From assembly GCA_035650735.1 (NCBI GenBank), contig DASRGZ010000198.1, positions 62,001-118,373 of the forward strand: 56,373 nt of DNA. The letters run 5' to 3'. Positions 42,001 to 48,000 of this stretch are shown piece by piece. Numbering within the stretch: the first letter of the stretch is position 1; each line of letters begins with the position of its first letter. The position numbers are program-made. The stretch is from Chthonomonadaceae bacterium (GTDB lineage Bacteria; Armatimonadota; Chthonomonadetes; Chthonomonadales; Chthonomonadaceae).

Positions 42001-45000
42001 GGCTGCGCGCAACGTTCAGACGCGGTCGCTCCGCCGTACCGCTCACCTTGGCGCGCACGCGCCGATGCCGCTTCTTGCGAAGCAGCTCCTTATCTTCAGC
42101 GTGCATGTTGAGTTCGTTTCCTCTCGCGCTGGATTTCCGACCCAGCGCACAGCGTTGCGTGCCGGATCGTCTCCGGCACGCAAGGAACTATTATACCACA
42201 ATCCTGGGCACGGCGCTATTTCTTGCCGCCCTTGCCGCCCTTGCCGCTGGCTTTGCCCGCCTTGCGGCGAACGACCTCGCCCTTGTAGCGAATGCCTTTG
42301 CCCTTATAGGGCTCCGGCTTCTTGAGCTTGCGGATCTCGGCGGCAGTCTGGCCGACCCGCTCCTTATCAATGCCGCTGATCGTGATGACCGGGTTGCGGG
42401 TCTGGGGATCGGTTGCGACGGCAAAGTTGATGCCCTCGCGCGGCGCCACCTCAATCAGGTGGGAGAAGCCGACCGCAAGCTGGAGGTTCTGGCCGGCCAT
42501 CTGGGCGCGGTAGCCGACGCCCTGGATCTCCAGTTGCTTCTGGTAGCCGTTAGTGACCCCCTCGATCATGTTGGCGACCAGCGTGCGCGTCAGGCCATGC
42601 AGCGCGCGCGACTCTTTCTCATCATTAGGCCGCTCGACTACCAGCGTGCCATCGCTCTGTTTTATGGTGATGCCCGAGTTAAATCGGCGAGCGAGCGTGC
42701 CCTTGGGCCCCTTGACCGTCAGAAGACCCTCTTCTCCTGGGGTGACGGTCACATTCGCCGGGATCGGAATCGGACGTTTGCCAATTCGTGACATAGTTCA
42801 ACCTCTAAATCTAGGCGTGCTTTTACCAGACGTAGCAGAGCACTTCGCCGCCAACGCCGCGCCGACGGGCCTCGCGGTCGGTCATGACGCCCTGCGACGT
42901 GGACAGGATGGCGATGCCCAGGCCGCGCAGCACGCGCGGAATCCGTTCCTTGTTGCAGTAGACGCGCAGCCCCGGCTTGCTGATGCGCCGCAGGTTGGTC
43001 AGCACCTTCTCGCGCTTCGTGCCATACTTGAGGTTAATCTTGATCTTGTCCTGCGGGGCCTGCTTGATCACCTCGTAGCCTTTAATGAAGCCCTCCCGCT
43101 GCAGTATCTTGACGATCTCCAGCTTCAGGTTCGAGGCCGCGATTTCCAGCGAGTCGTGGTTAGCGTTATTGGCGTTGCGGATGCGCGTCAGCAGGTCGGC
43201 GACAGGATCAGTCGTGTAAGCCATGGACTTTGCCTCCCTTACCAGCTCGACTTGGTGACGCCGGGGATCAGGCCCCGGTGCGCCATCTCGCGGAAACAGA
43301 TCCGGCACAGGCCAAAGCGCCGAATGTAACCGCGCGCCCGTCCACAGACGTTGCAGCGATGGTAGGCGCGCACCGCGAATTTCGGCTTGCGCTTGGCCTT
43401 CTCAATCAATGCTTGCTTTGCCAAAAAGAACCTCCATTCCATCTATCGGGACATTTGCCCTGCCAGGGAAGAAGCCCTCCCTCGTGTTAGACCTAACCCC
43501 CCGGCCCCCTTCCCTCATAGGGAAGGAGGTGACCCGACTGCTCCCCTCCCCTGTTCTTGGGGATCGCTAGGCGGAGGCGCGAACCGTTGAGCGCCGACCC
43601 TAGCAGTGGGACGGGGGTGGGGCCTCAACCGGAGTGAGGGTGCTTCCCAGCCAAGAATCTGCGGAACGGCTAGTGTTCCGCCTCGCGCTCCTTCTTGTGG
43701 TTCGCGATGATCGTCTGCGCAATATGCGCCGGGACTTCCTCATAATGCGATGGCTCTACGCGGAAGGTGCCGCGCCCTCGGGTAATGGAGCGCAGGTCAA
43801 TCGCGTAGCGCAGCATCTCCGCCTGCGGCACGGTCGCCTTGAGCCGGGTCTTGCCGGCCCCAGCCGACTCCGTGCCGAGGATGCGTCCCCGCTTGCCGGT
43901 CAAATCGCTCATCACGTCGCCCAGCATCGTTTCGGGGATCAGCACGTCCAGAGTTACAATCGGCTCCAGCAGGATCGGATTGGCCTTCGGAGCCACGTTA
44001 TTAAAGGCGATGGTGCCCGCCATGATAAAGGCGGCTTCCGACGAGTCTACGTCATGGTAGGAGCCATCATAGCAGGTCGCCTTGAAGTCCACCATCGGAT
44101 AGCCCGCCAGAATGCCATGCTCGGCTGCCTGCCGGATGCCTTTTTCAACAGCGGGGATGTACTGGCGCGGAATGGCGCCGCCGACGATGGCGTCCACAAA
44201 CTGGATTCCCTCGCCCCGGTTCGGCTCCATGCGAATCCAGCAATCGCCGAACTGGCCGCGCCCGCCGGTCTGCTTCTTGTGGCGGCCCTGGCCTTCCGCC
44301 TTGGTCGTAATCGTCTCGCGGTAAGGCACCTTGCGATCCACGACCTCCACGTTCGCGCCAAACTTCTTCATGCGCTCAACCACGATAGAGAGGTGCGTCT
44401 CGCCCGCGCCGGCGATGACCGTCTGGCCGGTTTCGGGTTCCCGATAAAAGCGGAACGCCGGGTCGGAGCCGGCCACGCGCTGCAAGGCCGGCCCCATCTT
44501 GTCCTCATCCACCTTCGTTTTAGCAACGACGGCCTGCTCAAAGATCGGCTCCCCGAACTCGATGGCGTCCAGGACGATGGGCTTGCCCGGGTCAGACAGC
44601 GTATCGCCGGTGCGGGTATCGGCCAGCTTGGCCGTCACGCCGATGTCGCCCGCGCGGACCTCGTTGGTGGCCTCCTGGTTCTTGCCGCGCGCAAAGTAGA
44701 CCTGGCCGATGCGCTCCTCCCGCCCTCGTGAGGTGTTGAGCACGGTCGCCCCGCTCTTCAAGACGCCCGAGAAAACGCGGAAGTAGTTGAGCGTGCCCAG
44801 GAACGGGTCGGCGATGGTCTTGAACACCAGCGCGGAGAGCGGCGCCGTCTCGGATGCCTGGCGCGTCTCCTCGGCCCCGGTCTGCGGGTTCTTGCCGTGA
44901 ATGGTGCCGACTTCCAGCGGGTTCGGGAACTCCTGCACGATGATGTCGAGCAGGTCGGTCATGCCGATATCGCGCAGCGCCGAGCCGCAGAGCACCGGCA

Positions 45001-48000
45001 CGACTTTGCCGGCATCAATGCCCTCGTGCAGGCCGCGCACGATCTCATCGTGGGTCAGTTCCTCGCCGTTCAAAAACTTTTCAATGAGCTCGTCATCACC
45101 TTCCGCCGCCGATTCGACGAGAAGCTCGCGATACTTCTGGGCCTCCTCCAGGCACTCCGCCGGGATCTCCGAGCACTCGACGTTCTTGCCGCTGCCAATG
45201 AACGCCTTCATCTCGACGAGATCTACGACACCCTTGAACGCTTCGGCGGAGCCGATAGGTATCTGAAGAGGCGCGATGCTGTTGCCGTACCGGGCGCGCA
45301 ATGCCTGCACTACCTGAGCGTAATCGGCGTTCTCGCGGTCCATCTTGTTAACGAAGACGGCGCGCGGCAGGTTTCGTTCCGCCGCCAGATCCCAGGCAAT
45401 CTCGAAGCCGACTTCCGGCTCGCCCTGCGCGGGCGTGACCAGGATAGCGGCCTCGACGACGCGCAACGTGCTGCGGACTTCGCTCTGGAAATCCAGATAA
45501 CCGGGCACATCTACGAAATTGATCTTCGTGTCGTGCCACTCGCAGGGAGCCAGCGCGGCATTGATACTGATATGCCGCCTCTGCTCCTCCGGGTCGAAGT
45601 CGCAGGCAGCCGTCCCGTCATCGGTACGTCCCAGGCGATCCAGCGCGCCGGAAGTAAACAGCAGGGCCTCGGCGAGCGAAGTCTTTCCTGCGCCCTGATG
45701 CCCAAACAGTCCGACGTTGCGGATCGCCTTGATTGCGTAGCTTTTCATCGCGTACTCTCCTCGCCTATGTTATTGACACGCGGCGCAGCATCACGACGGC
45801 GCAGCAAAATGTCCAGGGGTTGAACTGAAGGCCATTCTTCCTCGTTCCCCTTGCGTCGTCGCGTCCGCCCGATGCCGAGCGAACGCGGCGGCGAAGGCAG
45901 AGCGTCTTCATTATTCAGTTATCCTTACCTAATCCCCGTCCTGTGGCCCTCACCCCCTGTCCCCTCTCCCACGCTGCGGGAGAGGGGGAACCGAGAAGCC
46001 GGGTCACTCCCTTCCCTTTTAGGGAAGGGGGCCGGGGGGGTTAGGTCATCTCTCCCGGAAAGGCATGCCGAGCGCCTTGAGCAGCGCGCGGGCCTCCTCG
46101 TCCGTGCGTGCGGTCGTACAGATCGTGATGTCCATACCGCGCACTTTGTCAATCTTATCGTAGTCTATCTCTGGGAAGACAAGCTGCTCCCGCATGCCCA
46201 TCGAGAAGTTGCCGCGTCCGTCAAACGAATTGGGCGAGATGCCCTGGAAGTCGCGGATACGGGGCAGCGTAGCGTTCACCAGGCGGTCGTAAAACTCGTA
46301 CATGCGGTCGCCGCGCAGCGTCACCTTGCAGCCGATGCGGGCGCCCTGGCGGATTTTAAAGTTAGAAATGGATTTGCGGGCGCGGGTAACGATTGGCTTT
46401 TGGCCGGTGATGGTCGCCATATCGCGCACCGCGCCATCCAGCTCTTTCGAGTCGCCGCCGGTCTGCCCGGCACGACCGACGCCCATATTCAATACGATCT
46501 TTTCAAGCTTGGGAACCTGCATGACGTTCTTATAGTTGAACTGCTTCATGAGGTTGGGCGTAACTTCGCTTGTATAGCGCTCTTTCAAACGGGCAGCCAT
46601 GTTTCTCTCAATCTCCCTTGACGTGCCGCCGATTTCCGACCGGCGGCGGGAATGAATTACCTAACCCCCCGGCCCGGCAGGCTAAACCCTGCCGCTGTGG
46701 GGCGCTGCTAGGGTCGGGTTCCTCAACGGTTCGGAAACCTCCGCCTAGCCAGGCCCGCTGCCCACCTACGTGGGCAGAAAAACCCCGGCTTCTGCTCTCC
46801 CCTCCCCTGTTCTTGGGGATCGCAAGGTGTCGCAAGGCGGAGGCAAGGGCCATAACCTTGCCGACCCTGGCAGTGGGGCGAACCGTTGAGCGCCGACCCT
46901 GGCAGTGGGGACGGGGGTGGGGGCCAAAGCAGAAGGAACCTCTTAGCCCTCAATCGGTTTGCCGCAGTCCGGGTGCTTGCAGACGCGGTACTTGCGGCGC
47001 GAGGGCTTCTCGTCTCCCTCGCGAAAGGCGTAGCCGACGCGGGTGGGGCGATTGCAGTTCGGGCAGACCAGCATTACTTTCGAGGCGAACAGCGGCGCTT
47101 CCTTCTCGATGCGCCCGCCCTGCTGCATCTGGTTGGCCCCGGGGCGCGCGCTGGGACGGGCTTTCTGGTGGCGAATAATGATGTTGGCCCCCTGCACCGT
47201 CACCTTGTTCTCTTTCGGGAAGGCGGCCAGAATCTGACCGCGCTTGCCCTTGTCCTTGCCCGAAATGATCTCGACGGTATCGCCCTTCTTGACGCGCAGC
47301 TTAACCGGCTCCGCCGGCTTGCTTGGTTTGACTCTAGGCATCTTAAAGCACCTCCGGCGCCAGCGAGATGATCTTCATGAACTCCCGTTCCCGCAATTCG
47401 CGGGCGACCGGGCCGAAGATGCGAGTCCCGCGCGGCTCCAGGTTATTCTGGATGATGACCGCCGCGTTGTCGTCAAAGCGCAGCACCGAGCCATCCGGGC
47501 GCCGGATCGGCTGCTTGGTCCGCACGACCACTGCCTTGACCACGTCGCTCTTCTTGACCTGCTGGTTGGGCGTCGCCGACTTCACCACGCCCACGATTAC
47601 GTCGCCGACATTCGCGTAGCGGGCATTCGAGCCCTTCAGGACGCGAACGCACATGATCTCGCGCGCGCCGGAGTTATCGGCACAGCGCAAGCGGCTATAG
47701 ATCTGAATCATGGGGATATCCCCTTCCTATTTCCTGCTACTTGGCTTTCTCGATGATGCGCACGACGCGCCAGCGCTTCTCTTTGGAGAGCGGGCGCGTC
47801 TCCATAATCTCGACGGTATCGCCTTCGTTGCACTCATTGCGCTCATCATGGGCTTTGAACTTGGTGGTGCGCCGCATGATTTTACCATAGAGCGGATGGC
47901 GTACCTTATTCTCGACCGCCACCACGACGGTCTTCTGCATCTTATTGCTAACGACCCGGCCCACGCGCACCTTGCGGCGTCCGCGCACGGCGGGCTTCTT

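Follow-up and report, generated by a model that had tools for sequence, protein, structure and literature searches.

A second elongation factor G gene of the EFG II subfamily among the ribosomal-protein genes of Armatimonadota, with a predicted structured leader in Chthonomonadaceae

Why would a bacterium keep a second gene for elongation factor G (EF-G) among its ribosomal-protein genes? The question is raised by a stretch of 56,373 nucleotides from a Chthonomonadaceae bacterium (phylum Armatimonadota), hereafter the window. Its minus strand carries, in this order, rplN (L14; 47343..47711, ORF list, used as tblastn marker across genomes), rplX (L24; 46943..47341, ORF list, single copy in the genome), rplE (L5; 46046..46600, 297 bits to NF000585, cut-off 186), an EF-G paralog (43670..45748), rpsN/rpsZ for a type-Z, four-cysteine S14 (43239..43424, TTG start, 112 bits to NF005974, cut-off 77) and rpsH (S8; 42823..43224, NF001109). 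The ORF order and the profile matches agree with an earlier note on this DNA, which had placed the paralog between L5 and the type-Z S14. The reading frame of 692 aa is intact, without internal stop, and Pfam bore out the claim that it holds all five EF-G domains. The canonical EF-G is encoded in rpsL-rpsG-fusA-tuf on another contig (C31). The divergence of the two proteins was confirmed, at an identity of 43.4% over 686 aa (tblastn) instead of the 44% first given.

The earlier note had called the paralog a specialised EF-G. It is not a new one: by diagnostic positions and trees it almost certainly belongs to the EFG II subfamily, as described by Margus, Remm and Tenson in 2011 (PMC3150367), and the protein is not new in itself. 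The best NCBIfam match was NF009381 (PRK12740, 900 bits), and the motifs are GHQGAGKTSL (G1), RHISI (G2), DVPGY (G3), NKMD (G4) and RHKKQ (domain IV loop I). The change of G2 from RGITI to xxxSx that marks EFG II is thus seen as RHISI, of the described RxxSI type; proteins encoded between L5 and S14 (slot B, see below) have Ser in 82 cases of 85 and Thr in three. The switch-II His, within G3, is Tyr84 in the window paralog and Tyr or Phe in 85/85 slot-B proteins, compared to His in 93/93 EF-G I. The Gln and His of the domain IV loop were invariant (85/85). All six type I positions of EFG II (Gly, Leu, Ser, Thr, Gly, Lys at 19, 28, 64, 316, 360, 379 of Thermus thermophilus EF-G1) carried the expected residue (G16, L25, S61, T311, G355, K374), with numbering taken from the alignment to 1DAR. 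So did all seven type II positions (224, 258, 272, 498, 499, 543, 633; here D218, V252, L266, K491, K492, E535, G625), which weigh little since several also occur in the EF-G I of the same genome. As described for EFG II, the paralog is accompanied by an EF-G I in the str operon (on C31), and canonical EF-G I was present beside EF-G II in nearly all genomes checked.

In a FastTree phylogeny 217 paralogs and 93 EF-G I were found on opposite sides of one branch, and the split had an SH-aLRT of 100 in an 88-row tree; outside rows were typed by motif, and the trees included neither a named EFG II reference such as 1WDT nor an spdEFG sequence. The paralog scored above the EF-G equivalog cut-off of TIGR00484 (716 vs 659). 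Canonical EFG I was nevertheless rejected, as AHIDAGKT, RGITI and DTPGH are all altered and the gene lies in spc. The spdEFG2/mitochondrial RRF2 type was rejected on residue and score, not on a tree: the His is Tyr, and the RRF2 match was 287 bits vs 486-614 for EF-G and EF-G2. A Tet ribosomal protection protein was rejected at a tet_protect score of 291 (cut-off 775). Among 36 positions tallied we found no feature distinguishing the EF-G II of the phylum from that of other phyla, and a single-sequence AlphaFold model was unusable (mean pLDDT 38).

EF-G II is kept in the cluster under purifying selection. The dN/dS between the window gene and that of genome G231 was 0.09, and values of 0.013-0.09 were found in 9/11 pairs, the other two being saturated. 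EFG II is described as evolving faster than EFG I; here, across 30 slot-B genomes, the median identity to the window genome was 56% for EF-G II and 68.5% for EF-G I. In codon adaptation EF-G II ranked at percentile 85 among 1010 long ORFs, compared with 99 for EF-G I and 73 for tuf.

We then took a census of 160 Armatimonadota genomes from 49 families, with L5 as an anchor picked independently of EF-G. EF-G II followed L5 at the L5|S14 junction (slot B) in 59 genomes from 22 families, and occupied the S17|L14 junction (slot A) in 51 genomes from 23 other families, where no sampled genome lacked it. The old, phylum-wide placement among ribosomal-protein genes that the earlier note had proposed was hereby supported, and the second slot makes it broader than that note had it. 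The gene was located elsewhere in 27 genomes, none was found in 22, and one genome was left unassigned; 110 of the 137 located genes sit in the ribosomal-protein cluster, and an in-cluster copy is retained in 45/49 families. Outside the phylum, the cluster was unbroken in 19/19 outgroup genomes and none had an EF-G after L5; since 59/160 genomes of the phylum do, chance placement can be rejected. Ribosomal-protein neighbours were likewise found at 0/77 EF-G II loci outside the phylum.

The 22 genomes without EF-G II, several of them near complete, all belong to five families (f1, f6, f11, f14, f29) that also hold out-of-cluster copies. The latter are intact and nest within the slot-B clade in trees. 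The L5|S14 junction was split in 28/160 genomes (16/16 of f11, 8/8 of f14, three of f1 and one of f23), and unrelated ORFs were found at this junction in G036, G145, G087, G355 and G050.

Entry of the gene into the S10-spc cluster would predate the last common ancestor of the phylum; since then one half of the phylum would have held it at S17|L14 and the other half at L5|S14. A single ancient switch between the slots suffices for this pattern. One slot-B family, f18, was considered as an independent second arrival. The EF-G II of f18 falls together with that of Actinomycetota (SH-aLRT 95), a sister position to f10+f32 was rejected for the gene (p-AU 0.022), and free species trees placed f18 with f10+f32. 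However, f18 with the slot-B clade was compatible with both the gene tree (p 0.195) and the species tree (p 0.538), and the two species placements were close (log-likelihood -71594.0 vs -71597.9, p 0.55 and 0.45). The second arrival was therefore dropped and convergence is not claimed. All Armatimonadota EF-G II were not recovered as one clade in the trees.

Spacers around the gene are short. At slot B outside the window's family, medians were 28.5 nt upstream (56/60 measured) and 30 nt downstream (58/60), while slot A had medians of 42.5 and 34 nt (36/36); EF-G II abuts or overlaps S14 in 17/80 slot-B loci. Judged from orientation and spacers, EF-G II is quite likely to be co-transcribed with the ribosomal-protein genes. 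Co-transcription with L5 is not universal, since two f16 genomes (G141, G150) have a terminator-like hairpin and a TATAAT between L5 and EF-G II. A promoter and terminator scan of the window at 42000-48000 gave nothing above shuffles. Copies of a genome-wide intergenic repeat family are located at 45930..46045 (about 100-320 blastn matches per position, outside the EF-G II leader) and at 43470..43635 in the spacer between EF-G II and S14. The former makes an 84% inverted pair with 43497-43551; a reading as mobile-element ends was rejected, because the family to which both belong yields hundreds of matches.

In the window's family the gene is preceded by a conserved structured 5' leader (45749..45902, minus strand), found from an alignment of 18 sequences, a consensus fold and covariation. 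In the consensus fold an anti-Shine-Dalgarno segment (45890-45902) pairs with the Shine-Dalgarno sequence (45755-45765); another conserved helix contains a C-A mismatch (its 3' side at 45853-45862), and variable hairpins are also present. In the alignment 93% of cells were paired, with two-sided changes in 8/18 pairs and 0/500 shuffles as high. Of 25 family sequences examined, 10 lacked the anti-Shine-Dalgarno motif. In the other 15 leaders the Shine-Dalgarno sequence had an unpaired probability of 0.01-0.39, and removal of the anti-Shine-Dalgarno segment raised it in every one. The leader is thus predicted to hide the Shine-Dalgarno sequence of EF-G II in this family, which points to separate translational control where the earlier note had proposed co-expression, and on these models we consider a regulatory role fairly likely. 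Our leader model R1 found one copy in the window genome and matched 0/55 loci outside the family, to which the leader is confined; a looser pattern gave many chance matches in 42 family genomes and was excluded from counts. Rfam held no gathering-level family for the leader or for the S14 element described below, and its two sub-threshold matches both lay outside the spacers.

A boxA-like motif is found 130-230 nt before the 16S genes of the window's family. A regular expression for it, composed after the motif had been noticed in leaders, matched within 260 nt upstream of EF-G II in 13/24 family members and not in the other 11, while controls gave one antisense and one downstream match. It had no match upstream of EF-G II in the window genome, where the family leader alignment identifies a 3' remnant (45911..45923, minus strand) that lies next to the repeat and lacks the 5' half. 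The motif was found at 3/3 slot-B genes of f29 vs 0/36 at slot A, and in 6/20 L5|EF-G spacers vs 3/457 other ribosomal-protein spacers. Genes for Rho and NusB are present in the window genome, and the balance tips slightly towards a working boxA. The 16S-leader motif of the family resembles the GYTCTTTAANA consensus of rRNA-type boxA elements in the leaders of suhB, rpsJ and other protein genes (bioRxiv 10.1101/091223). Those are known from gamma-proteobacteria and lie mostly <50 nt from the start, whereas the motif here lies 90-230 nt upstream and precedes a structured leader within a ribosomal-protein operon. The boxA-like motif is also TTGACA-like, but a reading as a -35 box was disfavoured, as a -10 box lies 16-18 nt behind it in only 2/18 sequences.

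A further conserved RNA element accompanies S14 (43651..43707, minus strand) and extends over the final EF-G II codons. It consists of a hairpin at 43683-43707, a hairpin at 43661-43681 that contains the EF-G II stop codon, and a possible pseudoknot partner at 43651-43660. In its alignment 89.7% of cells were paired (0/500 shuffles as high); the pseudoknot helix was 97% paired without two-sided change, and the element is probably pseudoknotted. The EF-G II stop codon falls inside it in 14 family genes. It was found upstream of S14 in 30 f1 loci, including those with S14 far from EF-G II, and in G309 and G339 an apparent EF-G II deletion scar ahead of S14 proved to be this element. Like r-leaders (PMC7247131) it is a conserved structure 5' of ribosomal-protein genes, and it differs in having no Rfam match; the main text of that paper contains neither 'Armatimonad' nor 'Chthonomonas' and has S14 once, in another context. 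Both RNA elements appear to be undescribed and are candidate cis-regulators.

EFG II is widespread, with a role described as unknown (PMC4342817). A conserved gene context is given in PMC3150367 for EFG I only, compared to the S10-spc cluster found phylum-wide here, and 'spc', 'S10', 'Armatimonad' and 'OP10' are absent from its main text. The EFG II reference structure, T. thermophilus EF-G2 (PDB 1WDT/2DY1), has the diagnostic residues of the window paralog (665 vs 692 aa; match 486 bits); PMC3150367 reports ribosome-dependent GTPase and translocation activity for it. Mycobacterium smegmatis EF-G2 (PDB 9K0Z/9K10) shares the switch-II Tyr and also stands alongside a canonical EF-G. The match is moderate (491.6 bits), and that protein is described as stress-linked and without recycling activity. 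According to the same source, H88Y in M. smegmatis EF-G1 nearly abolishes GTPase activity, EF-G2 having Tyr there (bioRxiv 10.64898/2026.05.25.727771). Bacteroides thetaiotaomicron EF-G2 (fusA2, BT2167) is likewise a dispensable second EF-G, for which slow translocation has been reported. It differs in having its own promoter, and PMC6989115 gives a 238-fold induction on carbon limitation while fusA goes down. The window protein falls below the Bacteroides model NF058620 (570 vs a cut-off of 1000, match broken after residue 511).

We give about even chances to a combined explanation in which an EFG II in the cluster is co-transcribed, GTPase-poor and, in the window's family, gated in translation. 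EF-G II would bind GTP and the ribosome, because G4 and the domain IV loops are intact, and is probably a poor GTPase, because of the switch-II His to Tyr change, the P-loop Asp to Gly change and RHISI in place of RGITI. By analogy with studied EFG II it may be a slow, low-cost translocase or a ribosome-holding factor alongside canonical EF-G. In the window's family the leader would hide the Shine-Dalgarno sequence by default, and the rRNA-type boxA would let a Nus-modified RNA polymerase traverse the untranslated cistron of 2.1 kb without Rho termination. S14-S8-L6-L18-S5-L30-L15-secY would so still be made, with the boxA degenerate in the window genome itself. Against this explanation stand the 27 genomes with the gene out of the cluster and the 22 in which none was found, the missing motif in 11/24 family members, the limitation of the leader to one family, in which 10/25 sequences lack the anti-Shine-Dalgarno motif, and the two f16 genomes with a hairpin after L5. 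Related genomes are not independent, and counts over them overstate the support. The residues do not fix activity, since T. thermophilus EF-G2, also an EFG II, is reported active. An active second translocase of that kind, made constitutively with ribosomes and adding elongation capacity or robustness, is nevertheless improbable in our view. The invariant domain IV loop residues, the TIGR00484 score and a report that an EFG II can replace EF-G, only slower (PMC4342817), favour it. Against these stand the loss of the switch-II His in every slot-B protein, the effect of the same change in M. smegmatis EF-G1, the canonical EF-G I in nearly all genomes checked and the closed ribosome-binding site predicted in the window's family.

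Alternatively, EF-G II could be a historical passenger that landed once and was retained since clean excision from an essential operon is rare, its position being functionally meaningless, its control its own and its activity that of EFG II in other settings. In favour of this, L5|S14 is a vulnerable junction, split in many genomes and host to unrelated ORFs, out-of-cluster copies are intact within the slot-B clade, one slot switch explains the pattern, and in the window's family EF-G II is uncoupled from the operon by its leader. We still hold this to be unlikely, as the gene is in the cluster in 45/49 families, its move at the base of the phylum did not take it out of the cluster, the flanking genes are close to it or overlap it, and losses are limited to the five families with out-of-cluster copies (0/51 slot-A genomes). 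EF-G II could also be a factor for ribosome building or quality control that binds immature or empty particles; lying among ribosomal-protein genes with an rRNA-type boxA, it would be made with new ribosomes. Its position in both slots, its overlaps with S14, the motif common to 16S leaders and a stop codon inside the S14 element, a possible translational link to S14, agree with this. We find it very doubtful, since the tallied positions set it apart in nothing from the EFG II of other phyla, the gene is dispensable in 22 genomes, and studied EFG II (B. thetaiotaomicron fusA2 and mycobacterial EF-G2) are stress-linked. A joint reading is quite unlikely: EF-G II would belong to the ribosome-synthesis programme and act on new or idle ribosomes, gated in the window's family by boxA and an RNA switch. 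Ribosomes finishing EF-G II would unfold the pseudoknotted S14 leader, and synthesis of the second half of the spc operon would thereby come under feedback from an EF-G that is GTPase-dead.

The EFG II genes studied so far have promoters of their own that are induced by stress; Armatimonadota keep the gene among ribosomal-protein genes. The natural relocations and losses make the phylum a comparative system for asking which of growth, assembly and starvation EFG II serves, and the leader and the S14 element are small, concrete candidates for new cis-regulators. If true, protection of an untranslated cistron by a boxA would offer an essential operon a simple means of tolerating an insert.

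On the minus strand of the window, the ORF list and profile matches gave the order L14, L24, L5 (rplE, 46600-46046), an EF-G paralog (45748-43670), type-Z S14 (43424-43239) and S8. The paralog is 692 aa long with five EF-G domains, which bears out the divergent second EF-G between L5 and S14 described in an earlier note, and NF009381 (PRK12740) was its top-scoring model at 900 bits. Canonical EF-G (EF-G I) was located in rpsL-rpsG-fusA-tuf on another contig of the source genome (C31); the two proteins are 43.4% identical, close to the 44% claimed previously. The G+C content of the paralog gene is 0.63 (0.82 at third positions), and its neighbours are alike. 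The S17, S3, L22 and IF-1 ORFs of the window (47737-48303, 49137-50186, 50206-50850, and 36561-36959) were found to carry long low-complexity extensions. The S10-L3 gap (53942-54719) holds two small ORFs, of which the larger may be HEPN-like.

The earlier note had not placed the paralog on a tree. Judged by the EFG II criteria of Margus et al. (PMC3150367), the protein of the window carries every diagnostic position. Among 310 extracted proteins (93 EF-G I and 217 paralogs), all 217 paralogs, termed EF-G II, fell on one side of a branch with the 93 EF-G I opposite; when the tree was reduced to 88 rows, this branch had an SH-aLRT of 100. In EF-G II of the window, Tyr84 replaces the switch-II His. 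Where EF-G II stands between L5 and S14 (slot B), this position is Tyr or Phe in 85/85 proteins, and it is His in 93/93 EF-G I. The P-loop Asp is changed to Gly in EF-G II; G4 is retained, as are Gln and His of domain IV. Locus L508 (G038) and other genes of family f10 have Gly at the switch-II position (DTPGG), and Leu and Phe also occur in slot A, which lies between S17 and L14.

L5 was found in all 160 genomes of the census, which were hand-picked from 400 of the phylum with all 49 families covered, and gene order was read from 4.5 kb downstream of L5. Complete genomes were favoured, and family members in which EF-G matched only once were added, so the sample is not proportional. EF-G II followed L5 in 59/160 genomes from 22 families, in agreement with the earlier claim that L24-L5-EFG-S14-S8 holds in many families of Armatimonadota. 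S14 was seen behind it in 55 of the 59, and other genes intervened between L5 and EF-G II in two. Slot A was occupied in 51 genomes, every one sampled from 23 other families (36 by loci in the first set, 10 by later loci, and 5 by coordinates). EF-G II stood elsewhere in 27 genomes (f4 3, f6 4, f11 13, f14 3, f29 1, f1 2, and f23 1; one of the f6 copies is known only as a second match) and was not found with the query used in 22 (f1 5, f6 4, f11 3, f14 5, and f29 5); one genome stays outside these classes. Thus 110 of 137 located copies, in 45 of 49 families, are within the cluster. All 22 negative genomes belong to the five families that also have extra-cluster copies, and several are 92-100% complete with few contigs. 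Beyond the census, 25 slot-B-type loci from close relatives were added, and a named Armatimonadota record (L055) had identical gene order. Genome G210 lacks a full EF-G II; residues 470-684 of EF-G (domains IV-V) match there in isolation (C1:2220159-2220812). Genome G382, with three matches, carries a divergent EF-G on a long branch (L390) with a near-canonical G1 and without S12/S7 flanks.

Outside the phylum, no ribosomal-protein gene neighboured any of 79 loci from named genomes (77 of EFG II type), and S17-L14-L24-L5-S14-S8 was unbroken in 19/19 outgroup genomes with an L5 match (20 searched), in a small set that misses some sister phyla. Among 79 metagenome loci, EF-G II with ribosomal-protein neighbours occurred only as copies identical to the query; such neighbours were absent from 27 other loci that had 1 kb or more of flanking sequence on each side.

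A rooted tree built from 11 markers with 47 rows recovered the phylum (99) and two halves that match the slots. Solo EF-G II copies of f11, f14, and f29 nest within the slot-B gene clade (99), which shows that they departed from that slot. In f18, EF-G II occupies slot B, and S17 and L14 are adjacent. Free trees put this family amid the slot-A ones, but in a species-tree test a sister position to the slot-B half fitted equally well. The f18 gene within the slot-B clade was not rejected (p 0.195), and its gene with f10 and f32 was rejected (p 0.022). We do not claim convergence, in which f18 would be a second arrival at slot B. Both slots are accounted for if the gene moved once across L14-L24-L5, at the phylum's base. 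Two separate captures by the cluster are possible, since the gene trees gave no group that holds slots A and B without other phyla.

Outside f1, the family of the window, slot-B spacers had medians of 28.5 nt upstream and 30 nt downstream, both being at most 50 nt in 25/55. EF-G II abuts or overlaps S14 in 17/80 slot-B genes, and slot-A spacers are similar. These short spacers fit one transcript, and EF-G II would be transcribed together with the ribosomal-protein genes. Spacers are long in f1 (297 nt upstream and 245 nt downstream in the window); part belongs to a repeat family present in hundreds of copies, found in operon spacers at 43470-43635, 45930-46045, and 46640-46930, and the remainder is conserved.

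The spc operon breaks off immediately behind L5 in every f11 and f14 genome of the sample (16 and 8, respectively; L124-L166 and others; see also L497-L501). Several show a terminator-like hairpin behind L5, and S14-S8-L6 stand elsewhere in 5/5 genomes checked (2 f11, 3 f1). In L316 (G162), EF-G II-S14-S8-L6 is relocated as a block away from L5. Family f29 (L192-L199) has, by eye, a conserved TATACT (-10-like) before S14 in 5/6 spacers that lack EF-G II, the sixth carrying a similar sequence. Unrelated passenger ORFs occupy the L5/S14 junction in L118, L114, L116, L212, and L206; that of G355 looks like a DNA methyltransferase and that of G050 like a Y-family polymerase. In f32 (L246, L250, and L257) the S8 match falls into two parts separated by about 230 nt, suggestive of an insertion of about 75 residues. 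No S5 match was found within about 2.6 kb after L18 in f15, f25, f30, f33, f37, f41, f44, f46, f48, and f49; other families differ.

In f1, a conserved leader, about 155 nt long, precedes EF-G II, and the 5' end of this leader is predicted to pair with the Shine-Dalgarno sequence of the gene. Across 18 aligned sequences 93% of cells were paired, with two-sided changes in 8/18 pairs; none of 500 shuffles scored as high and slid controls gave 22-57%, in a test biased in favour of the structure, which was derived from the same alignment. Of 25 leaders examined, 15 bear the anti-Shine-Dalgarno motif; in all 15 the Shine-Dalgarno was predicted closed, and removal of the anti-Shine-Dalgarno made it more open. 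The leader model found one copy, before EF-G II, in each of three genomes outside its training set and no match in G036, which lacks EF-G II.

A motif just upstream of the leader resembles one located 130-230 nt before the 16S genes of the same families, and is like the boxA consensus in bioRxiv 10.1101/091223. Searched with a regular expression built from 16S-leader letters after the motif had been noticed, it preceded 13/24 f1, 3/3 f29 and 2/57 other slot-B genes, 0/36 slot-A genes and 7/73 genes of other phyla; it occurred in 6/20 L5-EF-G spacers vs. 3/457 other spacers. The window copy retains only the 3' half. Both rho and nusB were found in the source genome.

A second RNA element stands before S14 in 30 f1 loci, including loci with S14 far from EF-G II. 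It combines one nearly unvarying hairpin with a second that covaries, and may form a pseudoknot. It overlaps the last EF-G II codons in 14 genes (43651-43707 in the window), lies behind the stop in 8, and remains with S14 after the operon split (L002-L027, L114-L120, and L497-L499). Many f1 members have a further small hairpin before the S14 start. Neither the leader nor the S14 element matches Rfam.

The gene is under purifying selection, with dN/dS of 0.013-0.09 in 9/11 pairs and saturation in two. Apart from the reading proposed below, EF-G II could be a passenger in the cluster, an assembly factor, or an active second translocase. PMC4532990 supports the view that the switch-II His contributes to both GTPase activation and phosphate release. 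According to bioRxiv 10.64898/2026.05.25.727771, H88Y nearly abolishes the GTPase of M. smegmatis EF-G1, and M. smegmatis EF-G2 carries Tyr at this position, as does EF-G II of the window; B. thetaiotaomicron EF-G2 supports slow translocation, and T. thermophilus EF-G2 retains GTPase and translocation. EF-G II of the window is therefore likely a poor GTPase, although sequence does not fix its activity.

The subfamily, the placement, the conservation and the predicted pairing are results of the analysis. Beyond these, we propose as the most likely reading that EF-G II, with poor GTPase activity, helps elongation or keeps hold of idle ribosomes. In f1 its translation would be closed by default and opened by a signal, and a putative boxA would, by antitermination, keep the downstream essential genes transcribed. 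EFG II is described as widespread, its role as unknown (PMC4342817). In B. thetaiotaomicron, fusA2 is induced as fusA declines (PMC6989115), opposite to the expectation from plain membership of a ribosomal-protein operon; the leader may reconcile such membership with fusA2-like control. We found no report of the placement in the open literature, the scope of our search, nor in the available text of PMC4072686, PMC12172202, and PMC7247131; gene-context tables in the supplements to PMC3150367 or PMC4342817 may be relevant here. EF-G II of the Armatimonadota is a known subfamily in an apparently unreported phylum-wide setting, joined in f1 by two candidate cis-regulatory RNAs.
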